IMG/VR virus record: IMGVR_UViG_3300027509_000002
Coordinates: 1 to 64,000 of that record
Direction: 5' to 3' (one strand)
From: a virus
Length of the DNA: 64,000 bases
Part shown: positions 19,627 through 52,222 of the stretch, one piece after another
Numbering within the stretch: position 1 is the first letter of the stretch
Layout: the number at the start of each line of letters is the position of its first letter
Translations under genes and position numbers: made by a program
Notes under the pieces: generated by a model
What the model saw: the letters and a program-made list of their open reading frames with translations, nothing else
What the model was told of the DNA's origin: nothing
The model's database searches: none

Positions 19627-19628
19627 TT

Positions 19629-25643: not shown

Positions 25644-25693
25644 TTTTCTCACCTTCTTAGTTTCCTTTTTTCCAGTAATACACACATATATTA

Positions 25694-25709: not shown

Positions 25710-25760
25710 AAAAAGAGGTAGAACCAGTAGTGAACATTAATACTATTTAAAGGGAAAAAA

Positions 25761-25779
25761 AACCAAATATAATTTGGTT
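25761..25779. promoter_or_regulatory. palindrome AACCAAAT-ATA-ATTTGGTT
   Basis: 8-bp perfect arms with a 3-nt spacer, 82 nt upstream of the recA ATG. Operator-like. Confidence 0.45.
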
Positions 25780-25860
25780 AAAAAACTAATAGTTAAGTTG
25801 TTAGCAATTAGTTACCTACTTATAGTGCTATTTAGGATATTTATTATATATTGCAATAAT

Positions 25861-31697: not shown

Positions 31698-32645
31698 ATG
31701 TCTAGTATCTTAAATCCAGATCAAATCAATGAATTGTTGTCTATTATAGAAAGACAAAACATTGTTATGTTTTCCAACAAGTTTGGCAAAGATTTTTTAA
31801 ATCAAGAGCAACAACTAATGCTAAATGCCATGGGTGTAGATTTAGAAAATCAATACGATGCTACAAAAGATGTCGCTAAGATGTCTTTTCATTTGGGTAT
31901 GTTAAGTGAAGTAATAAAAGATACCGATTTAGAAAACCTGAACTTTGAGCACTTAAAGGAATATATCTCATCAGGTAAAAATATTCCATTAAACAAGGAA
32001 CAGCAGTTTGCACTAAAGAGTATTAAAAACCAATATTTAGGAGACATAAAGGCTAATGGTAACAGAATATTCTCTGACATTAACAATGTACTGGTGAATG
32101 CTGAAAAAGAAAATAGAGATGCTTACGAGAAAATAATACGAGATGAAATAGAGCAGGGTTTTTTAGATAAGAAAACTGTTTCTGAAATTGCACGTGATTT
32201 AGCACGTATGACAGGTGATTGGAATCGTAACTTTAGAAGAATGGTGGATTTTATCATGCATACTGCATACTCAGAGGGCAGGGCAGAGTATTTAAGAATG
32301 GAATACGGAGACGATGTGTTAGTGTGGGTACGTGTTTTTAATGGAGCTTGTAAGATCTGTAATAAGCTATATAAGAAGCCGAGAACAGGAGAGCCTAAAT
32401 TATTTAAGTTGTCTGAATTGAGAGCCAATGGAAATAATATAGGGTTTAAGCAAAAGGATTGGAAAGAGGTTGTGCCACCAATGCATCCACATTGTAGATG
32501 CTTATTAGAAAGATATGACGGTAAGTATAAGTGGAATAAAAAAACAAAGGATTTTACAGACGAAAACGAGAATTGGAAACCGCAACGCACAATAGATAGG
32601 CCAAAAGCCACTATTACTATTGGGGATGTAACTTATAAAGTATAG
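31698..32645 (+). CDS. MuF / SPP1 gp7-like minor head (morphogenesis) protein
   Basis: The C-terminal signature VVPPMHPHCRCLLERY is typical of the Mu F family. It lies downstream of portal. Confidence 0.75.
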   Translation: MSSILNPDQINELLSIIERQNIVMFSNKFGKDFLNQEQQLMLNAMGVDLENQYDATKDVAKMSFHLGMLSEVIKDTDLENLNFEHLKEYISSGKNIPLNKEQQFALKSIKNQYLGDIKANGNRIFSDINNVLVNAEKENRDAYEKIIRDEIEQGFLDKKTVSEIARDLARMTGDWNRNFRRMVDFIMHTAYSEGRAEYLRMEYGDDVLVWVRVFNGACKICNKLYKKPRTGEPKLFKLSELRANGNNIGFKQKDWKEVVPPMHPHCRCLLERYDGKYKWNKKTKDFTDENENWKPQRTIDRPKATITIGDVTYKV

Positions 32646-35345: not shown

Positions 35346-35381
35346 AGGAGGGCTAGTTGTTCATGCAACTGCCCTCTTTTT
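35346..35381 (+). terminator. hairpin terminator
   Basis: AGGAGGGC, a 17-nt loop, GCCCTCTT, then T-rich sequence. It overlaps the 5' extension of the track ORF 35357. Confidence 0.5.
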
Positions 35382-35384
35382 ATT

Positions 35385-35393
35385 TATTTTTAT
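35385..35393 (+). promoter_or_regulatory. promoter-like TATTTTTAT box
   Basis: Ends 2 nt before ATG 35396. Confidence 0.3.
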
Positions 35394-35395
35394 AT

Positions 35396-35938
35396 ATGAT
35401 TTGGTATTTTACGCCTTACGGAATCGATAAGGACTTAGGAAAAGCATATAATCAATATGCTAAATTGGTAACAGACAAAGACGATTGGATTTGTTTTTTA
35501 GATGCAGACACGTGTATAGGGCTTGTGCCTAAGTTTGGGCATGTATTGCAGGAAATAGTAGACTTATATCCCGATACAGGCTTATTTACATCCTACGCCT
35601 CTAGGATTGGCAATAAGCAACAAAGATTTGCAGGTAAAATAAGTGAAGATCCAAACATATTGAATCATAAAAAAATAGCCAAGTCTCAGGTTCATCACTA
35701 TAAAACGAGAGTAAAAGAACTGAATAAGATTATTTCAGGGCATTTAATGATGGTTAAGAAGTCAACTTGGGATGCCATTGGTGGAGCACCCGAAGGAATT
35801 GGTATTTTATCCATTGACAATTGGATTAGTAAAAGAATATTGCGTTCAGGTAAAAATATTTTGCTCATGGAGGGCATTTATTTGTTTCACTTTTACAGAT
35901 TAGATACTGGAAAACAAGACAAAAGCCATTTACTATGA
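35396..35938 (+). CDS. GT-A (family 2-like) glycosyltransferase
   Basis: DxD motif WICFLDADTC, and LMMVKKSTWDAIGG typical of GT2. Start moved to ATG 35396, downstream of the hairpin. Confidence 0.5.
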   Translation: MIWYFTPYGIDKDLGKAYNQYAKLVTDKDDWICFLDADTCIGLVPKFGHVLQEIVDLYPDTGLFTSYASRIGNKQQRFAGKISEDPNILNHKKIAKSQVHHYKTRVKELNKIISGHLMMVKKSTWDAIGGAPEGIGILSIDNWISKRILRSGKNILLMEGIYLFHFYRLDTGKQDKSHLL

Positions 35939-36678: not shown

Positions 36679-37403
36679 CAATCTCTTTAACAACTATTAC
36701 TTTTTATAAGATTTATCAAAATCTCATATTCCAAAAGCCTTTTCATTATACTAGATTTGGGGACGGGGACTTAATGATTATGCATGGTAAGGATGAAAAA
36801 TTTCATGATGCATCAGAGGATTTAACAAGGGAGCTGATAGAGTCTTTTTTAATAGAAGATCCAAAATACTTGAAGGCGTTAAGTGGAAATTATGAGAATG
36901 AGGAACACATGTCTAAGGGTGTTTTTGCACCCTTTGATAACAAATCGGAGCTTGAAGATATGGCTTTTGCATTAAATCCTGAGAGAACCCAATACGAGAA
37001 CCCAATAGCCCTACATTATTTTTACTGCTTTGAATACCCATTGTTCCACAGAATGATGTTAAAGTACATTAAGCCAGCAAAAAAGATGTTTATTGGCTGT
37101 GTAGATAAAGAGGTTGCAGAAACATTATTTGGTAAGATTGATATTTATGTGCGAACAGCCCCATATAATTCCTACAAAGACATAGATAGTTGGTATTTGC
37201 AGGTATTGGACGGGATGCACGATGTCGATCTTATTTTACCCTGTACAGGCATATCTACAAGGGTGGTGCAAAAAAGAATATATGAAGCAGGCTTTAAGGG
37301 GTCATCAATAGATTTTGGAAGCATTATTGATAGTTTTGCTGGTTTTCCTACGCGTAAATGGATCAAAAAATTGGGTTTACATGAAAATAGAAGAGAAGGA
37401 TAA
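36675..37403 (+). CDS. possible GT-D (DUF1792-like) glycosyltransferase
   Basis: YTRFGDGDLMIMHG recalls the RFGDGE motif. This is weak evidence. The gene is embedded between GT genes. Confidence 0.3.
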   Translation: MTISLTTITFYKIYQNLIFQKPFHYTRFGDGDLMIMHGKDEKFHDASEDLTRELIESFLIEDPKYLKALSGNYENEEHMSKGVFAPFDNKSELEDMAFALNPERTQYENPIALHYFYCFEYPLFHRMMLKYIKPAKKMFIGCVDKEVAETLFGKIDIYVRTAPYNSYKDIDSWYLQVLDGMHDVDLILPCTGISTRVVQKRIYEAGFKGSSIDFGSIIDSFAGFPTRKWIKKLGLHENRREG

Positions 37404-38193
37404 AAAATCTGGTATTTATTGCATTAAAAATGTAATAAATGGAAAAATGTATATTGGCAGTGCCACATACATAAGGTCTAGGTGGAATTTACATAGAAAA
37501 CAATTAAAGGAGAATATGCATCATTCTAAAAAACTCCAAAGAGCATGGAAGAAGTATGGCGGTAAAAATTTTTTATTTGAAATATTAGAGTATTGCAAAA
37601 TTGATTTTTTAGTAGAAAGAGAGCAGTATTTTTTAAACAATATTTTAAAAGCAGATGAAGATTCAAGGTATTTTGAAGACTATGGATATAATATTTTGAG
37701 AACCGCTAATTCTCTTTTGGGATTTAAGCATTCAGATGAAACAAAAAAGAAGATGTCTGATGCAAAGATTGGCTATATTCCTTGGAATAAAGGTAAGTCT
37801 GGGTTTACAGTGTTAGATGACACAAAAAGAAAAATAAGCAGCACTTTGAAGGGATATGTAAGACCTTCATTTACCAAAGAACATAGGAAAAAACTTGCCG
37901 AGGCAAATAAAAATAGATCATGCGACAGAAGTGCTATGTCGAAAAAAGGGAATAAAAAACGAATGTCAAATCCCAAATTTCTGAAACATTTAGAAAACCT
38001 AGTGACTATGGCAACAAGTGCAAAACAAAAAATAGTTTGGAAAATTGATCCATTAACTAATAAAGTGGTGGAGCAATTTGATTCAATCAATGAAGCAGGA
38101 GAGTCTATTAATAAGGGTGCTCGCAAATATATACGAATTTCGTCTCGAAAAAAGACGACATATAAGGGGTTTTTATGGAAAATAGAGAGTTAG
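37381..38193 (+). CDS. GIY-YIG homing endonuclease with NUMOD3 repeats
   Basis: GIYCIKNVINGKMYIGSATYIRSRWNLHRKQL, then HSDETKKKMSDAKIGYIPWNKGKSG. Start at ATG 37381. Confidence 0.85.
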   Translation: MKIEEKDKKSGIYCIKNVINGKMYIGSATYIRSRWNLHRKQLKENMHHSKKLQRAWKKYGGKNFLFEILEYCKIDFLVEREQYFLNNILKADEDSRYFEDYGYNILRTANSLLGFKHSDETKKKMSDAKIGYIPWNKGKSGFTVLDDTKRKISSTLKGYVRPSFTKEHRKKLAEANKNRSCDRSAMSKKGNKKRMSNPKFLKHLENLVTMATSAKQKIVWKIDPLTNKVVEQFDSINEAGESINKGARKYIRISSRKKTTYKGFLWKIES

Positions 38194-38951: not shown

Positions 38952-39452
38952 ATGAAAATCAGTGATCACATATCATATAGGGAAGCAATCAAATCAAATA
39001 CAGCAATTAGGTACGGAATCTTAAATTTACCAGATAAAGATCACATTGAGGCCATGAAATTACTTGCTGAGAAAATTTTTGAGCCAGTGAGAAAAGTCAA
39101 CAATAAGCCTATTGCAGTCACTTCATTCTTTAGAAATGAGCGACTTAATAGCATTATTGGTGGATCTAGTAGTTCACAGCACATGTCAGGTGAAGCAATG
39201 GATATAGATGCAGATATTTATTCCAATGGTATTACAAATGGCTGGATTTTTCACTATATTAGAAAAAATCTTGATTTTGATCAATTAATTGCCGAATTTC
39301 CAGATAAATATGGCCGTCCTAGATGGATTCATGTATCGTACTCGAAAAGAGGAAATAGAAATATGGCATTGGTGGCAAAGAAAAAGAAGTTTGGCAATAA
39401 AATAAAGACCGTATATGAAATATATGATCCTAAAAAACATTTAATTAAGTAA
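38952..39452 (+). CDS. peptidase M15 family endolysin (cell-wall peptidase)
   Basis: SSSQHMSGEAMDIDA and RWIHVSY form the H..D..H zinc site typical of M15 / VanY-like phage lysins. Confidence 0.7.
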   Translation: MKISDHISYREAIKSNTAIRYGILNLPDKDHIEAMKLLAEKIFEPVRKVNNKPIAVTSFFRNERLNSIIGGSSSSQHMSGEAMDIDADIYSNGITNGWIFHYIRKNLDFDQLIAEFPDKYGRPRWIHVSYSKRGNRNMALVAKKKKFGNKIKTVYEIYDPKKHLIK

Positions 39453-39596: not shown

Positions 39597-41414
39597 ATGA
39601 GCAATATACTAGAATTTGGTGAAGAGTTTGATTATCAGGATATAAATGCCCCTAGACGGGAGCAAATGCAGAAGTCATTTATTCAAGATGAAGAGTCAAT
39701 TGAAAAGGGAAACGTGAAGGGTCATTGGAGAACCACTAAGTCTGGCAAAAAGGTGTTCGTGAAAGACCATAGCAATGCGAAAACCAAAAAAGATTCTTTA
39801 TCAGCAAAAGAAAAAAGAGGCATAGAAGAAAGAACAAAAGAGAGAGCTGAAAAAATTGATTATTTATCTGATTATGAAAAACAGCCTAAAGAAGTACAGG
39901 CTATCATGGAGACTCTATCAGAGGGTGATGAATATGGATCTGATTCACCAGATGGATTAGAAGCAGCTCAAAAGAAACTTGCTGCTATTGGCTGGAAAAT
40001 GGAATACGGATTAGATGGTGGAGTGCATACATTAGAGCCGATTCAAAACAAAAAAAAAGCACTGCCAAAATATGATCAGTCATCCATAGATCAGGCAGCT
40101 AAACATATTTCTAGTATGACGGGCACACGAGATTCTGCCGTGAAGGATTTTGCCTCTGAAAATAACATTGATATAATGAAATTGGCTACGTATGTGGGGT
40201 CAAAGAAAATAAAACCAATGGATTTTTCGACAGCTATTTCAGGAAACAAGGGTAATCCATATGCTACAAAAATTGTAGATGCACTCACCAAGTCTCATGA
40301 GGAAACCATCGAAAAGGGTGGCTCAAAGCAAATCACCATTACACACAACAAAACAGGAAAAGAATTAACTGGTAGGTGGGTAACAATTAATGGTTCACAC
40401 GTATTTGTTTCAGGCGGTGGAGTTGAAATAGGAGCTAAAGAGATTAAGAACTATAGTGAAGGAAAAGGTGGTTCAGGTAAGTCAGAAGACACTAAGGGTA
40501 AAAAGGCTCTAAAGGAAGTGCAGAATAAAGACGATTTTGCTAGAAAAAATATTTCTGGTGATGAGCGTAGAGCTTTAAAGTCTAAATACGATGGTATGAG
40601 CAAGGATGAGCGAGCAGGACGTACTTGGGAGGCTTATTTGAACGATGAGGCCAAGAAAAAAGGAGGCGATAGTTCAGAAAAGACATCAGAAAAGACATCA
40701 GGAAAGAAGTCGGAGATTGAGGCCGTTAAACCTGGTGAAACAGTAACAGAAAAAGACGTTAACCCAGTAGAAAAAAAAGACGAGTCTTATAAGAAAACCG
40801 ATAAGTGGAAGGCTTTACATTCAAATGACAAAAAATCTATAGAAGCAGCAAAGAATTTAAAACATCTTGATTTAGATAAACTCACGTCTTCTGAATATTC
40901 TGATTTACAGGAAATGTTTGTTATAGTGGAGATGGAAATGCCAAGATCAGAAATAACCGCAGGAGATGAGATTGCTTTTAGATTACAATATGCCAATGCC
41001 GATGAAAAATTTAATGGGGTTTCTTTAAAAGACATGTATAAACTAGATGCAGGCAACGCAGCCGATTCTAAAGCAATGAATAAATGGTCAGAGGCGAAAG
41101 AGAAGAAAGTAAACGATGCCCTAGATGCATTTGAGAAGGAGGTTCAGAAAGAAATAGATGAAAAAAATCAAGTGGTACAGCAGGTAGCTAAGGAGGGCGT
41201 GAATATGAAGAACATTGCATCCATTATCTCTTCATCAATAGCGATTGAATACTTCACAGAAGAACTCAATGAAGACATATTAAATCAGCTTACTGCATTA
41301 GACAAGAAATACAATAAGCCTGTAGATCCAAATCAGCAAAGAATGTTTAAATCAGTTCAATCTATCACAGATAGAATTGAAGGTATATCGGACAAACTTG
41401 ACAGCCTTATATAA
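39597..41414 (+). CDS. K/E-rich polyvalent-type virion protein 1 (605 aa)
   Basis: Low-complexity charged linkers. Two IEKG plus hairpin modules: GHWRTTKSGKKVFVKDH and GRWVTINGSHVFVSGG. Confidence 0.6.
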   Translation: MSNILEFGEEFDYQDINAPRREQMQKSFIQDEESIEKGNVKGHWRTTKSGKKVFVKDHSNAKTKKDSLSAKEKRGIEERTKERAEKIDYLSDYEKQPKEVQAIMETLSEGDEYGSDSPDGLEAAQKKLAAIGWKMEYGLDGGVHTLEPIQNKKKALPKYDQSSIDQAAKHISSMTGTRDSAVKDFASENNIDIMKLATYVGSKKIKPMDFSTAISGNKGNPYATKIVDALTKSHEETIEKGGSKQITITHNKTGKELTGRWVTINGSHVFVSGGGVEIGAKEIKNYSEGKGGSGKSEDTKGKKALKEVQNKDDFARKNISGDERRALKSKYDGMSKDERAGRTWEAYLNDEAKKKGGDSSEKTSEKTSGKKSEIEAVKPGETVTEKDVNPVEKKDESYKKTDKWKALHSNDKKSIEAAKNLKHLDLDKLTSSEYSDLQEMFVIVEMEMPRSEITAGDEIAFRLQYANADEKFNGVSLKDMYKLDAGNAADSKAMNKWSEAKEKKVNDALDAFEKEVQKEIDEKNQVVQQVAKEGVNMKNIASIISSSIAIEYFTEELNEDILNQLTALDKKYNKPVDPNQQRMFKSVQSITDRIEGISDKLDSLI

Positions 41415-42895
41415 TGGAGTTTTTTGACGACATAGAAAAAGCTCATGATCCCTCAAAAGGGGGTAAATTGGTTAAGAAAACCATTGTAGATAAAACTGGT
41501 AAAAGAACCACTAAGTGGGTCAGCAAGGAACAAGCATCTAAGATGCAGGGAGGCCAAAACACTGATCCAGAAGAAGCACCAGTAGATACTACTAAAATCA
41601 CTGACTTACCAAGTAACCACAAAGCTGCTTTAGAGGTTATTAAGGAGTCTATGGACAATGGGGACTTAGATCATGCCTTAGAGCTTGCCAATAAGCTACC
41701 AGACGAGGTAAAGGAATATATACCTAAAGAGGATTGGAAAAAGCTATTGACTAAACGTGAAGAAGAGTCGGAGCAGGATGCAGAAAATAAGTCAGAGCCT
41801 AAGTCAGAGACTAAGAAAGAGACTAAGCCGAAAAAAAAGAAAGATACAAAAGACGGTATTGAGTATGCAGATGAGGAAATAGTGGGGGCAATTGGCGATC
41901 AATCTAATGCCAAAATGGATGCAAAAATAGATGGAAAAGTAGTTGGTACAGTTTCTTATTCTATATATGAAGGCCAGCCATCAATCCAAATGATAGAGGT
42001 TGGTAAAGATCAAAAAAGAAAATCGATTGCCACTAACTTAATGAAAAATCTACAGAAGAAATATCCAGATGTAGAAATTGACTTGGGTGGCTTTATGACA
42101 GAGGAAGGATCTAATTTTATATCAAAGCTAGATCGAGAGTTTGTCCCCAATACAGCATATAGTGATACAGAAGAACTAATATCTCAGTTACAACAGCAAA
42201 GTGATAAAATCATTGAGGAAATTTCCAACAATAATTACACCAATGCTGATACATTAGATGACATTAGCGACACTATCTATGATTTGAAGGTGGAATTAGA
42301 GGAAGCTGAAAAAGGCAAATATATTATCAATACTAAGGATAAAAAAGTATTGACGGATAAAGAAATATTTGCCGAATATGACCAAGAAGTATCAAAATAT
42401 TCAGAAGATCAGGTTTATAGCTTAAATGAATATAGAGGTGCAGACTATAGAGATATTAATGCAGATCTTAGAGATGACAATGAACTTAATGAAGATAATC
42501 AGCGAATAGTGGACGACATAGATTCGGCCTTTATTCCATCAAAGCAAGATATGGTTCTTACTAGAGGCATTGCAGGTAAATCAGATGAAAAGATAAAGTT
42601 TTTTCTTGATTTAGAAGTAGGTGATGAATATACAGACAAGGGATATTCTTCAACTAGCGTAAGTGCTGATGCCGTAGATGGGTTTTTAGATAACATGTCA
42701 CCACAGTTTAGTAAATCTAAAATGGTTTTAACAATTGTGGCTAAAAAGGGTTCAAAAATTGTGCCTATGCAAAATGTGGGGTCTGAACACAGCAATGAAG
42801 AATATAAAAAGGAAAAGGAAATTTTATTACCAAGAAACAGCAAATTTAAGGTGTTATCTAAAACAAATGGTGCAATGAAAGTGCAGTTATTATGA
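41414..42895 (+). CDS. GNAT-like plus ADP-ribosyltransferase (R-S-ExE class) fusion protein
   Basis: The ART triad is LTRGI (R384), YSSTSV (STS 413-415) and EKEILLPRNSKF (E467-x-E469), preceded by YRGADYRDINADLR. The middle region VGTVSYSIY..KRKSIATNLMKNL is GNAT-like. Confidence 0.75.
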   Translation: MEFFDDIEKAHDPSKGGKLVKKTIVDKTGKRTTKWVSKEQASKMQGGQNTDPEEAPVDTTKITDLPSNHKAALEVIKESMDNGDLDHALELANKLPDEVKEYIPKEDWKKLLTKREEESEQDAENKSEPKSETKKETKPKKKKDTKDGIEYADEEIVGAIGDQSNAKMDAKIDGKVVGTVSYSIYEGQPSIQMIEVGKDQKRKSIATNLMKNLQKKYPDVEIDLGGFMTEEGSNFISKLDREFVPNTAYSDTEELISQLQQQSDKIIEEISNNNYTNADTLDDISDTIYDLKVELEEAEKGKYIINTKDKKVLTDKEIFAEYDQEVSKYSEDQVYSLNEYRGADYRDINADLRDDNELNEDNQRIVDDIDSAFIPSKQDMVLTRGIAGKSDEKIKFFLDLEVGDEYTDKGYSSTSVSADAVDGFLDNMSPQFSKSKMVLTIVAKKGSKIVPMQNVGSEHSNEEYKKEKEILLPRNSKFKVLSKTNGAMKVQLL

Positions 42896-45800
42896 AAGAC
42901 AGATTTATATCCCAAGACAGCAAAGGCTTAGAAAAAGAGATAAGTGTAAAAACAGAAGAGGTTGTTGAAAAAGGACATTCAAATACTAAACTGGTTAAGA
43001 AGCAGGTATTGGTGAATAGGAATGGCAAATCTTTTTATCAAACAGTATATGTTAACCCCGAAACAGGGGAGGAATCAGATACACCAAAAGGAGAAGAGAT
43101 TTCACCCGTTTTAAACGGTATGGAGATTATCAAGTATTCTGATAAAGCCATGCTTATAAAGGGCGATACTTATGTAAACAAAGAGGATTTAAGAGCAGTT
43201 AAAAAGGAAATCGGTGTTGGTAGCTGGAACGCTAAATTGCAGGGGTGGATATTTCCCATTAAATTCAAAGATACTATTCTTGGCTCTTTATGGTCAAAGC
43301 AAATGGAAAAGGGCAATGAAGAAAAAGCCAATGCCATAAAGAACCAAAAGAATGCATCACTTGAAACAGGTGATTTAGCCAGCATTGATGGCCAAGTTGG
43401 TGTTGTAGAAGAAGAAGTTTCAGATTCTAATGGGGTTAAATACAATATTTCTTTGGAGGATGGAAATAAATTGTCTGGCGTAAGCGAAAAAGCTATTTCT
43501 GTAGATCCTGAAACAGACGACAATAAGGTAGCCGAAGCCGTTAATGAAGCCAATGAATTTAATCGAAATAAGACGGCTAAAAAAATATATGGCATTAAAC
43601 CCATAGAAAATGTTCATGAATACACTCTTTCCGACTATTTAGGTTTACATGGAATAACTCAGGAAGAGATAGATAATGCAGTAGCTAAATTAAACTCAAA
43701 GAAGCCAGCTAAGAAACGATCTTCTTTTTCTGGATCATCTACTAGCACAAGATCAACGTCTGGTGAACCCAAAGAGCTCAGTAGGCAACAATTGATCAGC
43801 AAACTAATATATAAACACTATCAATCTGTACAGAAAGCGTTGAACGAAGGCAAATCGGTGTCAGAAAATGTATTGTCCATCTATCCAGATCTAACGCCAC
43901 AAGAGACAGAAGAAAAAGAAGAAGCGGTAGCGGAAGTACCAAAAGAAAAAGAAGCGATGTCAGAAGAGACAAAGCGTAAAATTTCTGAGGCATTGAAGGG
44001 TAAAAAAAGAGGGGGCAAAGAAGTAGAAGAGTGGAAAGAAAAACTATCTGCATTAGAAGTTGAGTTGGAGATCAATCAAAAGGAATTTTATGATTTTAAT
44101 AGGCCAGAATATTCCGATCCTGATTATAACGAACGAAATGTACAGCTTGGAGAGCTACGTACAAAAATAGACGGTCTTAAAAAGTCAATTCATGATACAA
44201 AAAATACCATAAAGGCATTAGAAAACGGAGGATCTATAATGTCTGTAGAAGATAAGTTGGGGAATATACATGATAATATTCCTAGCTTTATTGGAACTTC
44301 TACTGAGGATGTTATGTATGATGAAGATACTATACTAAATAAAGAAAAGCCAGATTTTATACCAGAAATGGACGAAGACTTGCTTGAAAGAGGGAAGTAT
44401 ATGCCAGATGCCATAAAAATCGGTGCTGATCAATATTTGGTGGCTACAAGAAAATATACTGAGAGTTCCAGAAAAACTGGTGAAAGAGGTTATGGAGAAT
44501 TCGTAAAAGAATATAATCCCAATGAACCAGGATATGCCGTTATGAGTCTTGATCAACTTGTTTTAACACAAGACTACTATATTACAAGAGCAAAGGCAAA
44601 AAATAAACAAAAAGCTGCCAAAGACAATCAAAGACAATTAGATCATTGGAATGGCTTATCTGATAAAAGAAAAGAGTATTATTTAATGCAGAGGGGACTA
44701 TATAGAAAACTATCTGCTAAAAAGAAAAAGGAAATTAGCTCAGAGCAATGGGATAGCATGTCATGGCAAGATAGAGAAGAGCATTATAAGCCAATTAAAA
44801 AATTTGGTGTAAAAAGAGTAAGTGTTTATTCTTCTGATAAAACAATGGCTAGTTCGTTTCACTCTATGTATGAAAGATTTACTGATCCAGAAGCAACTAG
44901 AGTTAATGGGGCTGGGAAAACTCTTAAAAGAGGCGAAGGTAGGGGATATGCTCATCCAATTGTTGTAAAAGAGTGGAATACTTTAAGAAATGATTTGGAG
45001 ATAAAATCCAACGATATTAGAATGTATCGTGAAGAATTGGGCGATGGTACTTTTTCAAAGGGAAGAGAAACAGCTTATGGAGACAGTGGTGTTTCCAATG
45101 CCCTTTTAGATTCTCATGGTCTTAAAGTAAAAAGGCAAAATGGAGATGAAATATCGCCAAAAGAAATAGATGAAATTAAGAGTTCTTGGGAAGATGTTAC
45201 GAAATCATTTGGCCCACTAAAAGAAAACGCCAAAGAATTTGGATTAAAAATATCTCATTCTGGGGATAAATTAATGCATGCCAGAAAAGCTCTTGGACTT
45301 TATACCCCAGCACACAAAGCAATTGGTGTAACTGCTAAGGTGGGTCAAGATCAATTTAGCTTTACCCTTGGTCATGAAGTCGCACACTGGATTGATAATT
45401 CATTAGGCAAAAAAGAGGGTAGAAGATTTGCATCTGATAATTTTGAGTCTACTGCTGGCCAAATAGCAAAGACACTTAGAGAAAAAATGAATGGTGAAAA
45501 GCCAAGTAAGTACTATAACAGTACTTGCGAGTGCTTTGCTAGAGCCTTAGAGCAATATCATGCTGTAGAAAGCGTTGGTGAAACTGCTGCTAGAGGCGAA
45601 TCAGGAAAGCCATATTTTGACATGGACTATTATGCATCTAAGTCGGTTTACGATAATGACATAAAGCCATTGATCGAGAAGTTTTTAGGTGAGAATAAAG
45701 AATTTTTTAAATCATTCGGAGCTATGGATATTACAAAAGGATTTATTAAGACATTAATGGATGCAGGATCAAAGTTTCTAGGATCTGATAAGAAAGAGAA

Positions 45801-46281
45801 AACTAAAGATTTTGCTGACTGTATTGTATTTAATAAAAAGGCAGAGGTGCTATTGTTGAAAAGAGCAGATAATGGGAAGTATTGGCTACCAGGTGGAAGC
45901 GTGGACACTGATGACACCAATCATGAAGTAGCAGCCTTTAGAGAGCTTGTAGAGGAAACCAATCTAATTCCAGACATACACGCCTTTAGTGATACAAAAG
46001 TGGCTAAGAATGGCGGTAATATTTACGTATATGTAGTAATGCCAGAAACAGAAATGGTAGTCTTAGATCCAGATGAACATACTGATTTTGGTTGGTATAA
46101 CATGTCAGAAATTGAAGATTTAGCTATTTTATTCGGATCTCATGATCTATTAAGAGAAATGGTAGGTAAGGCTAAGCACACTCTTTTTGACAGCGTTGCT
46201 CAGGCAGCATTTAACTCTGGACAAATAACAGAAGATGAGTACCTTAATGGTCTTAGTTTTCTAAAGAACGGACACCTATAG
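42892..46281 (+). CDS. 1129-aa polyvalent protein with HExxH metallopeptidase-like motif and C-terminal Nudix domain
   Basis: NUMOD3-like SEETKRKISEALKGKKRG. HEVAH at 45373-45387. Nudix box LPGGSVDTDDTNHEVAAFRELVEETNL starts at 45892. Confidence 0.7.
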   Translation: MKDRFISQDSKGLEKEISVKTEEVVEKGHSNTKLVKKQVLVNRNGKSFYQTVYVNPETGEESDTPKGEEISPVLNGMEIIKYSDKAMLIKGDTYVNKEDLRAVKKEIGVGSWNAKLQGWIFPIKFKDTILGSLWSKQMEKGNEEKANAIKNQKNASLETGDLASIDGQVGVVEEEVSDSNGVKYNISLEDGNKLSGVSEKAISVDPETDDNKVAEAVNEANEFNRNKTAKKIYGIKPIENVHEYTLSDYLGLHGITQEEIDNAVAKLNSKKPAKKRSSFSGSSTSTRSTSGEPKELSRQQLISKLIYKHYQSVQKALNEGKSVSENVLSIYPDLTPQETEEKEEAVAEVPKEKEAMSEETKRKISEALKGKKRGGKEVEEWKEKLSALEVELEINQKEFYDFNRPEYSDPDYNERNVQLGELRTKIDGLKKSIHDTKNTIKALENGGSIMSVEDKLGNIHDNIPSFIGTSTEDVMYDEDTILNKEKPDFIPEMDEDLLERGKYMPDAIKIGADQYLVATRKYTESSRKTGERGYGEFVKEYNPNEPGYAVMSLDQLVLTQDYYITRAKAKNKQKAAKDNQRQLDHWNGLSDKRKEYYLMQRGLYRKLSAKKKKEISSEQWDSMSWQDREEHYKPIKKFGVKRVSVYSSDKTMASSFHSMYERFTDPEATRVNGAGKTLKRGEGRGYAHPIVVKEWNTLRNDLEIKSNDIRMYREELGDGTFSKGRETAYGDSGVSNALLDSHGLKVKRQNGDEISPKEIDEIKSSWEDVTKSFGPLKENAKEFGLKISHSGDKLMHARKALGLYTPAHKAIGVTAKVGQDQFSFTLGHEVAHWIDNSLGKKEGRRFASDNFESTAGQIAKTLREKMNGEKPSKYYNSTCECFARALEQYHAVESVGETAARGESGKPYFDMDYYASKSVYDNDIKPLIEKFLGENKEFFKSFGAMDITKGFIKTLMDAGSKFLGSDKKEKTKDFADCIVFNKKAEVLLLKRADNGKYWLPGGSVDTDDTNHEVAAFRELVEETNLIPDIHAFSDTKVAKNGGNIYVYVVMPETEMVVLDPDEHTDFGWYNMSEIEDLAILFGSHDLLREMVGKAKHTLFDSVAQAAFNSGQITEDEYLNGLSFLKNGHL

Positions 46282-46333
46282 TATATAACACACTGTTTCC
46301 CAACAAGTTGTGTAAATAAGATATAATGTACAT

Positions 46334-46360
46334 GCATGTTCACGTGAGCGTGTCACATGC
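46334..46360 (+). other. GC-rich hairpin in an intergenic region
   Basis: GCATGT/ACATGC outer stem and CACG/CGTG inner stem with a 4-nt loop. No T tract follows. Confidence 0.5.
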
Positions 46361-46398
46361 CATATATAGTCTTTGTAATCGGTTAATAATGACTTAAC

Positions 46399-46407
46399 TA
46401 TTTTTAT
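46399..46407 (+). promoter_or_regulatory. promoter-like TATTTTTAT box
   Basis: 15 nt upstream of ATG 46422. Confidence 0.3.
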
Positions 46408-46421
46408 ACAAAGAAACTATT

Positions 46422-49019
46422 ATGGAATTCCTCAATTTTGATAAAGACAACAATACATTCTTATTCAAGAATGAATATGATCACATAATTAGAAAATCAG
46501 CAAGCCAAGTAATTGAGCAACATCCTGATTTAGCTATTGAGATCACAAAAAATATATTTGATTTTGTAGAAAAGGGTGCAAAAGCAAACGCTGGCGAAAT
46601 TAGAGAGCATGGTGGTGTAAAGATGCAAAAATTAGCATCTGGAAAATGGGCTAAGGTAGGTTCATCTAAGGGCAAATCAGATGCCAAGGGAAGCGAATCT
46701 ATCCAGAATGCCATCAATGTACGAGAAAAGGCTTTAAAGATGGCTAGAGATAGCGGTAACGAAGGCATTATTTCTAAACTATCTACGCAGTTAACGGATC
46801 TTAAAGCTCAATTGAAGGGTGCTAAAACTACTGTAGAGAAATCAGCAGAGCAGGATTTAGAAAAAGCTACATACAAAGATACTCCTGAAAATAGAAAGTT
46901 AGGTAGAGTTGGTAAAGAATGGGGTGGAAAGAAAGAAGGACAAAAAAACACTGATGGATCACAATCTAGTGGCAAGACCGTTAAAATATCTGAGAATTTA
47001 CGTTTGGAGGGCACACCAAATAAAGAGTTTGCCGAAGGAATTTTAAGTGCTCTTAGGTCATACCCAAAAGGGCATCATGCTAGGCCATTTATGCCAAATA
47101 AAGAATATGGTTCTGTTTATGGTGTAAAACTGACAACTCTTAAAGAAACGACCGAAAAAGATTTAGAAAGATTGGAGATTTTTGCTAGAAAAATATTGTC
47201 TGACGATCCCAATATAAAAGTTAAAAAATCAGACGATCAAGACATAGAGAAAGCACAGAAGTATATTAGACGAACTGGAACGCCAGGAAACTATAAGTAC
47301 GAATATGCTGATTCAAAATCAAATGTAAGAGGCCACAAAAATACTGTAGTAGAATCTGATGAAAATAAGATGAAAATCTTACAGGGTCAATTAGAAGAAG
47401 ATACTATCAAAAGAGCAAAGGCAAAAGAAGAGGGTAATTCTACCAAAGAAGCACATTTTGATCATGAAGTGAAAAGGCTTAGAAAAGAGATTGGAGAATT
47501 GAGAGCTAACGGTACAGACGAAAAAAAGGAATTAGAGGCACATAAGGAGAGCGATAAAAAGACTCCAAGCCCAGAAGCGGTCTTTAAGGAAGTATATGAC
47601 AAATATAACGCTAAGGATTATTTTGGGGAAAAGAGCCGCATAGAGTCAGCCGTTAAACAGTGGAAGTCTTTTCTTGAAAGAGGTGATGAAGGTGCAAAAA
47701 AATATACTAAAGAAGACGTAGTGCAGCATATGGAACGTGCCATTGCAGCCGAGGCAAAGCACACTTTTGATACACTAAAGACAGCTATTGATAGTAAAGA
47801 TATAAACAAGTTAAAATCAAGAGTTCGTTATGATCAGCCATATACAAAAGAGCTTTTCTCAAAATTAACAGGTATTAGTGTACCCAGCACAAATGCACAA
47901 ATTAATACCATGCTGGACCAATTTGCATCCGACAGTAAAAAAAAAATTGAAAAATCAGATAGCCAAGAAATAGAAAAGGCTCAAAAAAAAGGGTACTACA
48001 GAACCCTAAAAAGTGGCAAAAAAGTATATGTTAAGCCACATCAAGATTCGAGAACAAAGAAAGAGGAAAAGACATTTGTAATACGATCTAGGGTAAAGGA
48101 TGCCAACAATAAACTATTAGATGACGTGCATGTATCTGTGCAAGCCAACAGTGCACAGGAAGCAGAAGAAAAAGCAGCAGCTAAGCTAAGTGAAAATCCT
48201 GCATACCCTAAAGATGGCAGATTGGAATTAGTAGATGTAAATATTGCTGATTCAAAGAGTTTAGAGCAAAAAAGGGCTCAGGGTAAATTAGACTTACTAC
48301 GCAAAAGAATCACTAAAGAAGTTAAGAAGCTAGAACAAAAAGATCTATTGGATATAGAACGAAAAATGATAGAGAGCACAGTTAAAGAATGGCAGAATTG
48401 GGCAAAAGAGTATGAGAAAGCTGCCAATAGCACTCCACTTCCAATAAAGAATATGCCTGAGTTTATGAGCTATTTGAACAGCTTCTACGGTAAAGATGGT
48501 GTATATCCAAATAAAATGGGGGAAGATGTCAAAGAATCTGATGTGATTGATGCTATTAAATATGCTGCATCAAAAGGATATAATTTTGACAATGGTGACA
48601 GTATGGATCGTGAAACGGTTAGAGACATATTAACTGAGCGAAATCTGATTGATCCTAATTATGACAATAGCCATGCCAATGAAGAGAAAATAGTCGTTCC
48701 TGCTGATGAAGCACCGAAACAGCCAGACCATACAGTAGCAAAAACTATTTTACAGCAATTGGGTGGAAGTCAATTTACGGCTATGACAGGAGCAAAGAAC
48801 TTTGGAGCAGATGCAAATAAGTTAATGTTTAAAATAGCGAAAAATGCCAAAAACGTAACTCATGTTTCCATCACTTTAAACGGGAAAGATTTATATGACG
48901 TGAAATACATTAATGTTAGAGGATCTAATATAAAGACCATGAGCGAAAGCAATGATATTTATGCTGATATGTTAGTAAACGATTTTGAACAAAATACAGG
49001 AATGTACACAAGAATTTAA
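46422..49019 (+). CDS. K/E-rich polyvalent-type virion protein 4 (865 aa)
   Basis: Internal repeat KSD(D/S)Q(D/E)IEKAQK. The module GYYRTLKSGKKVYVKPHQDSRTKK matches the 39597 product. Confidence 0.6.
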   Translation: MEFLNFDKDNNTFLFKNEYDHIIRKSASQVIEQHPDLAIEITKNIFDFVEKGAKANAGEIREHGGVKMQKLASGKWAKVGSSKGKSDAKGSESIQNAINVREKALKMARDSGNEGIISKLSTQLTDLKAQLKGAKTTVEKSAEQDLEKATYKDTPENRKLGRVGKEWGGKKEGQKNTDGSQSSGKTVKISENLRLEGTPNKEFAEGILSALRSYPKGHHARPFMPNKEYGSVYGVKLTTLKETTEKDLERLEIFARKILSDDPNIKVKKSDDQDIEKAQKYIRRTGTPGNYKYEYADSKSNVRGHKNTVVESDENKMKILQGQLEEDTIKRAKAKEEGNSTKEAHFDHEVKRLRKEIGELRANGTDEKKELEAHKESDKKTPSPEAVFKEVYDKYNAKDYFGEKSRIESAVKQWKSFLERGDEGAKKYTKEDVVQHMERAIAAEAKHTFDTLKTAIDSKDINKLKSRVRYDQPYTKELFSKLTGISVPSTNAQINTMLDQFASDSKKKIEKSDSQEIEKAQKKGYYRTLKSGKKVYVKPHQDSRTKKEEKTFVIRSRVKDANNKLLDDVHVSVQANSAQEAEEKAAAKLSENPAYPKDGRLELVDVNIADSKSLEQKRAQGKLDLLRKRITKEVKKLEQKDLLDIERKMIESTVKEWQNWAKEYEKAANSTPLPIKNMPEFMSYLNSFYGKDGVYPNKMGEDVKESDVIDAIKYAASKGYNFDNGDSMDRETVRDILTERNLIDPNYDNSHANEEKIVVPADEAPKQPDHTVAKTILQQLGGSQFTAMTGAKNFGADANKLMFKIAKNAKNVTHVSITLNGKDLYDVKYINVRGSNIKTMSESNDIYADMLVNDFEQNTGMYTRI

Positions 49020-49029
49020 TATATATAAT

Positions 49030-50721
49030 ATGACACCAAAAAATAATTTTAAATTTTATATCAACGCTGATATATCCAAAGCCAAAAATGGCAAGGATAT
49101 GATCATTCAGGGTATCGCTTCTACATCTGCTAAAGATTCACAAGGCGAATTCCTAGATCCTAGAACATTTGATTTGAATGATTTTAACTGGATTAACTGG
49201 AATCACAAAGGAAAAGATGATCCATCTACAATTATAGGTGAACCAATACATGCAGAAGTCAATGAAAAAAATGAGCTCTTTATTAAGGGTCTATTATATG
49301 ACGATGTTCCAATGGCTAAGGCTACTTACAAATTAATGAAGGCATTACAGAAGTCACCAACTGGAAACAGGTTAGGGATGTCTGTAGAGGGTAGAGTAAT
49401 CGAAAGAGACTCTATGAACCCAGCTAAGATATTGAAATCAAAGATCACAGGCGTAGCGATATGCCCAGTGCCAGTAAACGGTGCTACATGGACTGAACTA
49501 ATCACTAAGGGATATACAGAAAATGAGACTCCGATATACGATATAGATCAATATGCAGATAAAGAGGTCGAAAAAGCGATGTCTATTGAAGGCACTACAG
49601 GAGCTTTAGAGAACGAAGGTATTGATCGTAAATTAGAACATGAATCGGTGGAGGGTACAAAGAAGAAAAAGAAGAAAAAGAACGGGGAAACGGTAGATTT
49701 AAAGGTGTTAACTAAATCGGAAGCCTATAAATCTATATTTAATTATTTTTATATCAACGATATAGCGAAAGCTAAACAAATTTATTCTTTAATAGAAAAC
49801 ATTAGTATTATGGACAAACAACAAATTACTAAAGAAACAATTGAAAAAGCACTTGAAATTATCAAGGTTGCTGATTCTGTAGTTTCTAGTAACGAGGATG
49901 CTACATCGGATGTAGTTGAAACATCAGAAGAGATAGAAACTACTGCCGAAGCTACGGAAGAAGTTGAAAAGTCTGAAACAGAAAACATTGAAAAAGGTGA
50001 AAAAACAAACGATGCACCTGACAATGTAGAAGAAAAAGAAGCGGTAGCTGAAAAAGATGAAGATTCAGAAGAAGAAGATGAAGATGTGGAAAAAAGCATC
50101 TATAAGTCGGCTTGCAATTATGCCAAAAAACTATTTAGTAAGGGCATGGATGAAGATGAAATCAAAAAGGCTATGAGTAAAGTATATTCTAAAGATGTAA
50201 CTACAAAGGCATGTGCTTCTGTAGATATGGGAGCAAACGCTGCTGCTAACATGGGAGGAATTACACCACAAGGTAGTATCAAAAAATCTGAAACCATCGA
50301 GTTAGAAAAAAGTTTTTCTGCTATGGCTGACAAATTTGAGAATCTTTCTAAATCTTTTGAAGAAAAATTTGATACAATCAAAAAATCTTATGACAATTTA
50401 TCAGAAGAGAATTCTACTTTAAAAAATAGAATCAAAGAAATTGAAAATACACCGACTGCACCAAAGTCTCTTATCTCTAAATCATGGGCTGAAAGGTTCG
50501 AGAGTAAAATAAAAGAGGGTGGTGATATAGAAAAGGGTGAAATCTATAGTTTAAGCAATAAACAATCAAGAGAGGATCTAATCAACAAGGCATTTGAAAT
50601 GGCTATTGAAAAAGGAGATGACGATCTTTCTCGAATCGTAAAAGGCTTAGAGGCCACAAAACAGATTGACGATAGAGGTCAGGCTAAATTAAAAGCGTTA
50701 GGAATCAACGTATTACCGTAA
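49030..50721 (+). CDS. prohead serine protease (HK97/S78-like) fused to an acidic scaffold-like domain
   Basis: The N-terminal IIQGIASTSAKDSQGE..NWNHKG..RLGMSVEGRV has a His/Ser layout like S78 proteases. The C-terminal half is E/D/K-rich coiled coil. Start at ATG 49030. Confidence 0.6.
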   Translation: MTPKNNFKFYINADISKAKNGKDMIIQGIASTSAKDSQGEFLDPRTFDLNDFNWINWNHKGKDDPSTIIGEPIHAEVNEKNELFIKGLLYDDVPMAKATYKLMKALQKSPTGNRLGMSVEGRVIERDSMNPAKILKSKITGVAICPVPVNGATWTELITKGYTENETPIYDIDQYADKEVEKAMSIEGTTGALENEGIDRKLEHESVEGTKKKKKKKNGETVDLKVLTKSEAYKSIFNYFYINDIAKAKQIYSLIENISIMDKQQITKETIEKALEIIKVADSVVSSNEDATSDVVETSEEIETTAEATEEVEKSETENIEKGEKTNDAPDNVEEKEAVAEKDEDSEEEDEDVEKSIYKSACNYAKKLFSKGMDEDEIKKAMSKVYSKDVTTKACASVDMGANAAANMGGITPQGSIKKSETIELEKSFSAMADKFENLSKSFEEKFDTIKKSYDNLSEENSTLKNRIKEIENTPTAPKSLISKSWAERFESKIKEGGDIEKGEIYSLSNKQSREDLINKAFEMAIEKGDDDLSRIVKGLEATKQIDDRGQAKLKALGINVLP

Positions 50722-50758: not shown

Positions 50759-52222
50759 ATGAACAACACTTTAGACGATATGCAAAACGGATTCGCTGGT
50801 GACGGTGGGCAAGATGCAGAGTACTTATTGAAAGCTATGCAAGCTGGTCACATCACAGGACGTGAAACCGCAAATCAGTCTTTAACGCAAGAGCCGTTAA
50901 AAGCTGAATCTTTAGAAAAGACATTGAAATTATTAGATCACAGAACAAGTGATTTAAAATTAATCAATGCAATGCCAAAAATGACTGCTTATAACACAGT
51001 TGAAGAATTTATTCAGTTAGAGTCTTATGGTAATCAACGTGGAGGTTTTTACGGGGAAGGAGAACTTTCTGATGTAGAAGATTCTAAGTATGTAAGACGT
51101 GCTGAAAAGATCAAGTACTTACAAGTAACTGGATCTGTAACTCTTCAAGCACAAATGGTGAAATCTTTTGTTCCAGCAATGGCTAAAGAGGTTTCTAACA
51201 AAGTAATGTGGATTCAGCGTAGAGCGAATACCTTTATCACTAAAGGAAACGAGAATATCGTTCCAGAAGAGTGGAATGGTTTATATGCACAGCATGCTTC
51301 TATTGGAACTGGTAGCGGTTTCTTATATAATAACCTTGATGCGTATTACGGATCAGAAGTTGTTGTAGATTTAAGAGGAAAGTCTCTTAAACAAGAGGAT
51401 GTAGAAGACGGAGCAGTAAGAGTAGATGCTAATTTTGGTATTCCAACTCACTTATTTGCTGCACCAGTTGTAATCTCTGCTTTAGCAAAAGATTATTACA
51501 ATGATCAGCGTATCTTAATGAACGGTGGTGGATATGACGGTGTTATTGGAACAGTTCCAAAGGCTATTTCTACTACTATGGGTGACATCACTCTAGGAAA
51601 CGATAAATTCATGGCTGCTGAGCCTGCTAAGTTATCATCTAATACTGCTACAAGTGTGAAAGCACCTGCTGCCCCTGTAGCTGATGCTTCACCTGCACTT
51701 GCTACTGATGGTTCATCTGTACTTGAAGCTGGTGAAGATGGCCCAGTATTTTATGCTGTGTCTGCCATCAATAGATATGGAGAGTCTGCATTAACAGTTC
51801 AAGGAGCTGCTGTAACTCTTACAGTTGGATCATCTGTAGATTTAGATTTCTCTGCTGGTGTAGGATCTGCATTCGCTGCAACTGCATTTAGAGTATATAG
51901 AACTAAAGTAAACGGTGCGAACACTGGTAAGTTTTACCCAATCTTTGAAGTATCTGCTGCTGAATTAGCTTCTGGCTATGATAGTGCTGCACCTGGTCTT
52001 GCAAGAGACAGACATAGATTACTTCCTGACTGTGAAACTGCATTCTTAGCTGAGATGACAGAAGAAGCAATGAGCTTTAAGCAACTTGCACCTGTATCTA
52101 AGTTAGACCTTGCTGTAGTTGGATTGAGTAGATCTTTTGTAGCATTCTTATTTGCAACGCCTCAGTTGTATGCACCTAAGAAAATGGTTAAGTTTGTAAA
52201 CGTTGGGAAAACTCTTAACTAG
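50759..52222 (+). CDS. major capsid protein (HK97-fold type)
   Basis: 487 aa, immediately after the protease/scaffold gene. Locally higher GC and Ala/Gly/Val-rich. A strong terminator follows. Confidence 0.75.
   Translation: MNNTLDDMQNGFAGDGGQDAEYLLKAMQAGHITGRETANQSLTQEPLKAESLEKTLKLLDHRTSDLKLINAMPKMTAYNTVEEFIQLESYGNQRGGFYGEGELSDVEDSKYVRRAEKIKYLQVTGSVTLQAQMVKSFVPAMAKEVSNKVMWIQRRANTFITKGNENIVPEEWNGLYAQHASIGTGSGFLYNNLDAYYGSEVVVDLRGKSLKQEDVEDGAVRVDANFGIPTHLFAAPVVISALAKDYYNDQRILMNGGGYDGVIGTVPKAISTTMGDITLGNDKFMAAEPAKLSSNTATSVKAPAAPVADASPALATDGSSVLEAGEDGPVFYAVSAINRYGESALTVQGAAVTLTVGSSVDLDFSAGVGSAFAATAFRVYRTKVNGANTGKFYPIFEVSAAELASGYDSAAPGLARDRHRLLPDCETAFLAEMTEEAMSFKQLAPVSKLDLAVVGLSRSFVAFLFATPQLYAPKKMVKFVNVGKTLN

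Follow-up and report, generated by a model that had tools for sequence, protein, structure and literature searches.

What is a protein that joins an HExxH motif and a Nudix box in one chain, beside a gene for an ADP-ribosyltransferase (ART), and do these enzymes serve a common purpose? The question is raised by a stretch of viral DNA of 64,000 nucleotides (nt), positions 1 to 64,000 of IMG/VR virus record IMGVR_UViG_3300027509_000002 (the window, in whose numbering all positions are given unless stated otherwise). The gene at 42892..46281 on the plus strand encodes a protein of 1129 amino acids (aa), and its start codon shares bases with the stop codon of the ART gene upstream (ATG and TGA within ATGA). 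In an earlier note, made from the sequence alone, the product was taken for a polyvalent protein with a zincin site, and a part in an NAD+/ADP-ribose (ADPR) module was suggested from the adjacency of the ART. The present analysis identified it as a phage polyvalent protein in the sense of Iyer and Aravind, an ordinary case of a described class; its conserved core of about 945 aa has a lethal-factor-like gluzincin domain as its last part, and a Nudix domain is appended after the core.

The gluzincin domain (45004..45726, plus strand; aa ~705-945) forms the C-terminal end of the family core and matches phrog_22901 (E 5e-61), a family labelled "unknown function" in PHROG. The sequence HEVAH is aa 828-832, nt 45373-45387; this interval, previously attached to LGHEVAHWID, is correct for HEVAH, and the whole LGHEVAHWID spans nt 45367-45396 (HEVAHWID, 45373..45396, plus strand). 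Since a lone HExxH is expected by chance in 4.7% of shuffles of the 1129-aa protein, the motif by itself is weak evidence and corroboration was needed. In an alignment of 28 homologues, H789, H828, E829, H832, D835, S848, Y874, E880, A883, R884 and a KRQNG strand were invariant in every sequence. In the predicted active site, zinc is bound by H828, H832 and E880, E829 acts as the general base, and Y874, H789 and D835 line the pocket. H789 (45256..45258, plus strand) ends the beta strand LKISH, D835 lies three residues past the motif, and Y874 together with the helix CECFARALEQYH that provides E880 occupies 45511..45561 on the plus strand, the helix itself being aa 879-890 (nt 45526-45561). The cysteines flanking E880 in "CECF", C879 and C881, were considered as metal ligands and rejected because neither position is conserved in the 28 homologues.

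The AlphaFold2 (AF2) model of aa 690-945, with a predicted local distance difference test score (pLDDT) of 90.2 and a predicted template-modelling score (pTM) of 0.88, contained three short strands (H789 closes the first), then the long HEVAHWID helix, a short helix and the E880 helix; the predicted ligands are carried by model helices 130-152 (HExxH) and 189-206 (E880). A Foldseek search of the PDB placed anthrax lethal factor first (1yqy, E 7e-4, probability 1.0), with lethal factor at probability 0.96-1.00 over the first 24 matches, followed by the Bacteroides putative zinc peptidase 4l7a, IrrE, PPEP-1/Zmp1 and selecase, all of them HExxH+Glu enzymes. Among predicted viral structures (BFVD) the best match was S5VLA8 (TM 0.87, 44% identity), an entry that carries no name, and the next were MuF-fused "head morphogenesis" proteins, phage "Lethal factor" proteins and PolyVal ART proteins. 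The sub-threshold Pfam matches of the domain in the 28 members were nearly all to zincin or polyvalent families (LPD1 in 19, DUF6782 in 15, DUF3810 in 10, M91 in 7, M48 in 6, M78 in 4, MPTase-PolyVal in 3 and ATLF in 2). The phage-type MPTase clade is marked by a His at a strand end and an Asp three residues after HExxH (PMC5512222), and the domain fits this clade by the description of Iyer et al. 2017. Because the ligands are invariant, the AF2 fold and the Foldseek matches agree and the clade marks H789 and D835 are present, the earlier zincin call is right: by modelled fold and conserved predicted ligands the HExxH domain is a gluzincin metallopeptidase.

The profile of this domain retrieved 560 clusters (50% identity) from 1.84 billion representatives, 287 of them at E<=1e-30; the proteins bearing it are 320-3108 aa long and carry it at any position. 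Two of the nearest solved folds, anthrax lethal factor and PPEP-1/Zmp1, are toxins or effectors of narrow specificity, and the peptidase could therefore itself be the weapon, an injected lethal-factor-like endopeptidase directed at specific host proteins (defence proteins, transcription factors) and not at its own chain. No part of the family is more conserved than this domain, which often forms the extreme C-terminus, with nothing downstream to be freed, and such a role is listed as one possibility by Iyer et al. (PMC5512222). There is, however, no support for a host substrate, and in multi-module homologues the domain stands between modules, as fits processing; weapon and processing roles are, besides, not mutually exclusive. 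A weapon in place of a processing enzyme thus seems possible and no better than doubtful.

The second enzyme, a Nudix hydrolase domain (45784..46188, plus strand; aa ~965-1099, which is also the span of a local hidden Markov model (HMM)), sits beyond the usual end of the homologues. It matched Pfam PF00293 over aa 975-1075 with 49.8 bits (cut-off 21.1; E 4.6e-13) and, unlike HExxH, called for no corroboration. The string LPGGSVDTDDTNHEVAAFRELVEETNL (aa 999-1025, nt 45886-45966) contains the box GGSVDTDDTNHEVAAFRELVEETNL (aa 1001-1025; 45892..45966, plus strand) and lies 171 aa past HEVAH, in line with the roughly 170 aa first estimated. The box reads G1002-x5-D1008-x8-R1017-E-L-V-E-E-T-N-L against the canonical GX5EX7REUXEEXGU: Asp (D1008) replaces the first Glu, one residue is inserted, and N1024 stands for the final Gly, as it does in several relatives, whereas REx2EE (R1017, E1018, E1021, E1022) is intact. 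In an alignment of 14 Nudix sequences the GG pair, these four residues and E1062 in a downstream DEH were invariant. All 13 relatives keep the first Glu with x7 spacing, so that the Asp and the extra residue that the earlier note had remarked on are unique to the window copy among the 14, where the loop before the box is also five residues shorter. The AF2 model (pLDDT 81) places R1017 to E1022 on a helix of aa 1011-1023, and Foldseek gave 453 PDB matches at E<=1e-3, the top 50 all being Nudix proteins. Judged by alignment and model, the C-terminal domain is a Nudix fold with its catalytic site kept. Structure prediction, which had been proposed as a check, thus recovered both the zincin and the Nudix fold, with metal ligands conserved in the homologues. 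The fold is followed by a C-terminal helical tail, AQAAFNSGQITEDEYLNGLSFLK (46195..46266, plus strand), SHOCT-like by eye, with helices 139-163 and 169-180 in the AF2 model and no Pfam match.

A close-homologue search with the Nudix domain alone gave 2 matches only. A local HMM built from the four copies seen first and run on 175 peptidase-bearing proteins found seven more, so that this Nudix type occurs in 11 of the 175, at the N-terminus in 10 and at the C-terminus only in the window protein. As read from these sequences, the Nudix domain is a mobile accessory module. Being the only C-terminal copy of the 11, the sole one with the Glu-to-Asp change and box insertion (and the shortened loop), and the one with the lowest Pfam score of the group, it might be a decaying or non-catalytic remnant, perhaps fused through loss of a stop codon, in a protein that works through its core alone. 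Yet R1017, E1018, E1021, E1022, E1062 and the GG pair are all intact, the frame is open for 184 aa, the identical 1129-aa protein is on record on 5 contigs, and Asp would be chemically fit to stand in for Glu as a second-shell or metal ligand. We consider a remnant very improbable.

What the Nudix domain may hydrolyse is suggested by its relatives. Fold comparison did not discriminate, with Foldseek E-values of about 1e-8 across subfamilies (Dcp2, MutT 3grn, Ap4A hydrolases, BdRppH, GDP-mannose hydrolase, NudC). In a profile search of PDB sequences the order was MutT-related 3grn (E 2.7e-23), NudG (1.2e-17), MutT 7syc (1.1e-16), NudI (1.5e-16), BdRppH (9.6e-16), Ap4A hydrolases (~2e-14 to 4e-14), ADPRase 4kyx (1.2e-13) and NudC (2e-10). 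The best NCBIfam match was NudB (E 7.9e-12; 44.9 bits, cut-off 103), and orthology to any subfamily is not claimed because all NCBIfam equivalog scores are far under their cut-offs. By sequence, the domain is of a minimal type closest to MutT, NudG, NudI, RppH and Ap4A-type enzymes, the ADPR and NADH pyrophosphatases being further away; for this reason ADP-ribose and NAD are no likelier as substrates than a (d)NTP-like compound, a dinucleoside polyphosphate or an RNA 5' end. The ApnA hydrolase subfamily has a Tyr 16-18 residues past the box. The window copy has Tyr at +20 and +22, most relatives have a conserved Tyr at +19 to +21, and Ap4A hydrolases rank high in both the fold and the profile comparison.

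Among these candidates, an injected RNA 5'-end pyrophosphohydrolase or decapping enzyme (RppH/Dcp2-like), which would set off the breakdown of host transcripts as infection begins, draws on the Foldseek ranking, headed by the Dcp2 Nudix domain (E 4.6e-9) and including BdRppH (2.7e-8), on the place of BdRppH in the profile search, and on weak matches to NCBIfam RppH and YtkD (1e-4 to 2e-4) and to Pfam Nudt16-like (0.012); decapping Nudix enzymes are also found in eukaryotic DNA viruses (PMC9503650). However, the Foldseek E-values are near flat over Nudix subfamilies, the best NCBIfam model is NudB and not RppH, every subfamily score falls far under its curated cut-off, and no RNA-binding extension was identified in the protein. 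This function is regarded as unlikely.

The remaining candidate involves the gene upstream. ORF493 (open reading frame of 493 aa; 41414..42895, plus strand) encodes a GNAT acetyltransferase (23.7 bits) and an Alt/VIP2-type ART, matched by Pfam ADPrib_exo_Tox at E 6.4e-16, with LTRG (aa 382), STS (aa 413) and EKE (aa 467) placed as expected for an R-S-ExE triad. The adjoining ART gene noted earlier is therefore real. The gene is linked to both its neighbours by translational coupling (TAATG at 41414, ATGA at 42892), and its ART is homologous to the C-terminal ARTs of the proteins P0014 and P0035, both of which have this same peptidase upstream of the ART. In this setting the ART and the Nudix domain could act as one NAD+/ADP-ribose unit, hydrolysing ADP-ribose, NAD+, NAD-capped RNA or ADPR-derived immune signals. 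Besides the coupling of the two genes, this proposal can point to P0008 and P0025, which join the same Nudix type and ART-PolyVal in one chain, to NudC and one ADPRase among the significant matches, to T4 NudE.1, which hydrolyses ADPR, NAD and NAD-caps in vitro (bioRxiv 10.1101/2024.04.04.588121), and to the proposal that head-packaged Nudix, Macro and NADAR proteins counter ADPR-derived signals; for head-packaged phage Nudix proteins the NAD/ADPR idea had thus already been put forward in general form (PMC9503650).

Co-occurrence lends this proposal no support. An ART was found on the same polypeptide in 2 of 11 Nudix-bearing and 11 of 164 Nudix-free peptidase proteins (Fisher p=0.19), in a sample of 175 proteins, partly fragments, in which single polypeptides and not neighbouring genes were counted and power is low. 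None of seven further Nudix-bearing members has an ART, one of them having a topoisomerase IB core instead, and around P0016 (Nudix and 2H) no Pfam-recognisable ART occurs in the ~8 kb upstream and 1.3 kb downstream on its contig. The signature of ADPRase Nudix enzymes, reportedly described by Dunn et al. in 1999, is a conserved Pro 15-16 residues past the box. This Pro is absent: the 26 residues past the box hold Pro only at +2 and +26, and none of the 14 aligned sequences has one at +15/+16. NudC/NADH pyrophosphatases are marked by the motif SQPWPFPxS past the box and by a zinc-binding domain at the N-terminus; the motif is likewise absent from the whole 1129-aa protein. The MutT-related protein, NudG, MutT, NudI and BdRppH are 7-13 orders of magnitude ahead of ADPRase and NudC, and tblastn against 50,697 phage records gave only four at E<=1e-5, T4 not among them. 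Since the polypeptide co-occurrence is insignificant and Nudix members without an ART exist, a functional NAD+/ADP-ribose unit is not supported by the adjacency of ART and Nudix, and that part of the earlier note was not upheld; as an explanation of the locus it is held to be possible but tentative.

A more elaborate variant, to which little credence is given, would have the Nudix domain and the co-expressed ART act on the same targets, with the peptidase freeing both, as a self-unpacking three-enzyme injected counter-defence cassette. NUDT16 and RppH can trim protein ADP-ribose to phosphoribose in vitro. In one possible version the Nudix domain would trim ART-installed protein ADP-ribose to phosphoribose and so make it resist host ADP-ribosylhydrolases; in another it might destroy immune messengers derived from ADPR just as the DNA enters.

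The polyvalent nature of the protein was clear from its relatives. A search of 5.8 billion proteins yielded 31 relatives of 958-1733 aa, the commonest being 958-993 aa long and stopping a few residues past the HExxH domain (...ENKEFLKS); as most relatives end just after the peptidase, they cover ~82% of the query and are without Nudix. The long relatives (1395-1733 aa) carry differing modules on either flank of the common core: ART-PolyVal and NUDIX in P0008 and P0025, NUDIX and 2H phosphoesterase in P0016, Kinase-PolyVal in P0019, and PF20106 and InPase in P0014 and P0029, P0014 having the C-terminal Alt-type ART as well. In polyvalent proteins of phages and conjugative elements, unrelated enzymes are routinely joined in one chain (PMC5512222). 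In agreement with the trait of at least two unrelated domains, the window protein holds a peptidase, a Nudix domain and a NUMOD3 motif, and the effector modules of its homologues (ART, kinase, InPase, 2H) are shuffled, which confirms the class first assigned to it. In the metagenomic homologue P0071 (1448 aa), aa 1211-1415 form a eukaryotic-type topoisomerase IB catalytic core (Pfam E 8.9e-20) beside the same Nudix type and peptidase.

The rest of the core is less telling. Its N-terminal part (42991..43671, plus strand; aa ~34-260) shows an invariant stretch KYSDK..GDTY..GW.FP in the homologue alignment and matched no known family, the Pfam search of 21 members being empty here as over the N-terminal 700 aa as a whole. 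The NUMOD3-like motif lies at 43957..44007 on the plus strand (aa 356-372, EETKRKISEALKGKK; PF07460), almost coincident with the string SEETKRKISEALKGKKRG (aa 357-374) to which it had first been assigned. It occurs as a single copy and scores 21.0 bits, above the PF07460 cut-off of 20.4 and marginal; the match is kept in 16 of 21 homologues, with E359, K361-I364 and E366-L368 invariant, so the assignment holds. The motif may be a DNA-binding helix.

Where such a protein might act is suggested by its location in the head module of a Bacteroidota-type myovirus, represented by a metagenomic contig of ~99 kb. The major capsid protein shares 58.6% identity with its counterpart in Chryseobacterium phage MA9V-3, more distant relatives being Bacteroides DAC phages and SPO1-like myoviruses. 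The gene order is portal, MuF-like, phrog_1745, glycosyltransferase, GIY-YIG, lysin-like, ORFs of 605, 493, 1129 and 865 aa, head protease and major capsid. On the plus strand, the portal (29181-30776) and the MuF-like minor head protein (31698-32645) are head-module markers upstream; directly downstream of the four large ORFs are the head maturation protease (48985-50721; phrog_1028, E 1.5e-31) and the major capsid protein (50759-52222; phrog_752, E 4.5e-61). A location among late or virion genes of phages (or among T4SS genes) is a trait of polyvalent proteins (Iyer et al. 2017), and the window gene shows it, lying between the portal/MuF and the protease/capsid genes. The homologue P0025 is placed similarly, two genes upstream of a capsid-like gene, with an unannotated 474-aa ORF between.

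Taken together, the locus is explained, we think with somewhat better than even prospects, by a head-module polyvalent effector, a lethal-factor-like peptidase with an accessory Nudix domain, that is packaged, ejected and processed. The 1129-aa protein and its three large neighbours would be assembled into the capsid and ejected with the DNA, as is T4 Alt. The metallopeptidase would then cut the multi-domain chain in which it sits, perhaps neighbouring proteins or host proteins too, freeing or activating the modules. Within minutes of the start of infection the freed Nudix domain might hydrolyse a nucleoside-diphosphate-X compound through its REx2EE metal site. We infer packaging, processing and early Nudix action by analogy with T4 Alt, P1 DdrB and N4 vRNAP (reviewed in PMC5512222 and PMC9503650); that phage heads carry packaged ART and Nudix proteins is a proposal of PMC9503650.

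Several observations weigh against this account. TM-scores to lethal factor are only ~0.45 in Foldseek, and among the 28 members no curated Pfam peptidase family reaches its threshold, PF18818 (MPTase-PolyVal) and PF07737 (ATLF) included. The sequence profile of the peptidase found no peptidase among all PDB chains (the sole match was a spurious one to dynein light chain, E 0.11), so that the fold search was needed. We know of no member of the clade with a known peptidase activity or cleavage site. Packaging and ejection are suggested by gene position only, and on contig L001 the homologue lies between packaging and replication genes, near the terminase and not beside the protease and capsid genes. 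Within its group the window Nudix domain has diverged furthest (49.8 bits, 58-80 in relatives), and its Asp-for-Glu change, insertion and shortened loop could have weakened it; in its AF2 model the substrate-determining loops have a pLDDT of 56-65.

The cluster contains three other large genes. ORF605 (39597..41414, plus strand; 605 aa) contains no known domain in Pfam and PHROG searches, and overlapping starts and stops (TAATG, ATGA) join the first three large ORFs. ORF865 (46422..49019, plus strand; 865 aa) carries the linker motifs NRKLGRVGKEWG (aa ~157-168) and KYIRRTGTPGNYKYEY (aa ~280-295). Similar motifs stand at module boundaries in P0014, P0019, P0025, P0029, P0030 and P0031; neither shuffled controls nor more remote members of the family contain them. 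They may serve as linkers, as sites of cleavage or as signals for targeting. Because the ART of ORF493 resembles those of two peptidase-bearing proteins and the linkers of ORF865 resemble those of the long homologues, the four-gene cluster looks like a polyvalent protein split into genes. BLAST of ORF605 and ORF865 against 177 collected proteins gave no match at 1e-4, only short linker motifs being held in common.

Short similarities were also seen within the cluster. An 18-residue motif is nearly identical in ORF605 (aa 41-58, 39717-39770; KGHWRTTKSGKKVFVKDH) and ORF865 (aa 523-540, 47988-48041; KGYYRTLKSGKKVYVKPH), between which no further similarity could be detected; a signal for binding or packaging, common to both proteins, is a possibility. 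The N-termini of ORF1129, the 1129-aa gene (42892-43060), and ORF493 (41414-41540) are alike (IEKA...LVKKxxVxxxGKxxxxxV), and an equivalent stretch follows the peptidase domain in P0045, P0048, P0049, P0052 and P0071. An HMM of the N-terminal 'KKxVxVxRxGK' motif, run on six-frame segments of the window, found only its two source instances, and a packaging signal common to all four ORFs is for this reason not demonstrated. The 1129-aa gene is followed by a 140-nt AT-rich spacer (46282-46421) in which inverted repeats (ACACA...TGTGT) are visible by eye; elsewhere the large ORFs overlap, and no other sizeable gap interrupts them. A promoter and terminator scan of 39.3-49.1 kb, made without Bacteroidota promoters, gave counts at or under shuffle expectation.

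Upstream of the cluster, all on the plus strand, lie phrog_1745 (33203-34759), a 'DNA transfer protein' (E 4e-153) with a weak metallophosphoesterase match, located between the MuF-like gene and the large-protein cluster; a glycosyltransferase-like gene (35357-35938) within the head module; a GIY-YIG-type homing endonuclease gene (37315-38193; phrog_314, E 1.4e-31) inserted in the head-gene module; and an endolysin/peptidase-like gene (38952-39452) directly 5' of the four large ORFs, whose product may be a virion-associated lysin. At ~25300-25800 of the window the gene strand switches from minus (4.1-25.3 kb) to plus (25.8-64 kb) and the GC skew changes sign, which looks like a divergent transcription or replication boundary. 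Contig L001 (JGI contig Ga0452209_000275), from a related 104-kb phage, has in its own numbering a split DNA polymerase III alpha (PHP/pol3_alpha; finger/HHH) with a methylase between at 15674-21157, and an adenylosuccinate-synthetase-like gene, which may be PurZ-like, at 22584-22982.

The protein is a well-delimited polyvalent example, with effector modules attached to a 945-aa core that contains a lethal-factor-like peptidase. Its large peptidase clade lies outside curated models (Pfam sub-threshold, PHROG unknown) despite comprising at least 560 clusters, and the 28-homologue alignment could seed an annotation model. The occurrence of the Nudix domain at the N-terminus, at the C-terminus or as a stand-alone protein is a natural experiment on the need for proteolytic release, and its substrate would reveal what nucleotide or RNA species of the host has to be removed by a Bacteroidota phage on entry. 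The polyvalent class with MPTase is already known and nothing here overturns current views; the minor new points are the C-terminal placement of the Nudix domain (among 11 members), its atypical box (among 14 aligned sequences) and the peptidase clade without a curated model.

Compared with known systems, ORF493 resembles T4 Alt, a head-packaged ADP-ribosyltransferase, in having an Alt/VIP2-type ART with R-S-ExE-type motifs in a head module; it differs in that the ART is fused to GNAT and belongs to a four-gene cluster of large proteins, whose packaging is predicted only. The Nudix domain is most like minimal MutT-type enzymes (3grn of Methanosarcina mazei, NudG 2rrk, MutT 1mut and NudI, its best profile matches at 2.7e-23 to ~8e-15), one compact domain of ~135 aa without extra substrate domains, and its relatives show sub-threshold NUDIX_4 matches; unlike those enzymes it occurs in a viral, fused setting. 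By the tblastn search of phage records, in which T4 was not among the four matched, it is not a close relative of T4 NudE.1 (bioRxiv 10.1101/2024.04.04.588121). MA9V-3, the nearest sequenced phage, has a Nudix protein (XQU63093.1, 235 aa) with 27% identity over 172 aa, helical tail included, at the same head-module site, between a 1459-aa ORF and the protease; unlike the window copy, this is a stand-alone gene with a canonical box, and tblastn of the phage records detected no homologue of the peptidase core in MA9V-3. With head-packaged phage Nudix proteins (PMC9503650) the domain has in common the head-gene location, predicted injection and the EE pair of the box, whereas here the fusion is to a peptidase-bearing polyvalent core and not to MuF or portal.

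In lethal factor the zinc ligands are H686, H690 and E735 and the catalytic residues E687 and Y728 (PMC3496994). The Glu of its domain IV (MEROPS M34) lies 45 residues past the second His, and E880 lies 48 past H832; Tyr728 is 7 residues before Glu735, and the invariant Y874 is 6 before E880. The two differ in sequence (12-15% identity, with the TM-score given above), in the lack here of domains I-III, and in that the Pfam ATLF model matches only 2 of 28 members, weakly. Among the closest systems is the MPTase of Iyer et al. 2017 (PMC5512222; PF18818, and PF18796 for LPD1). From Pfam MPTase-PolyVal the family is set apart by weak matches in just 3 of 28 members, LPD1 matching 19 of 28 below threshold and over the Glu helix only, and from the published proteins by a surrounding core of ~700 aa with a NUMOD3 motif that corresponds to no Pfam family. 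Both have the HExxH helix and the Glu helix on a three-stranded sheet, the clade His and Asp (here H789, which ends LKISH, and D835, which is H832+3), a remote homology to lethal factor, and a place in huge multi-domain phage proteins among head genes.

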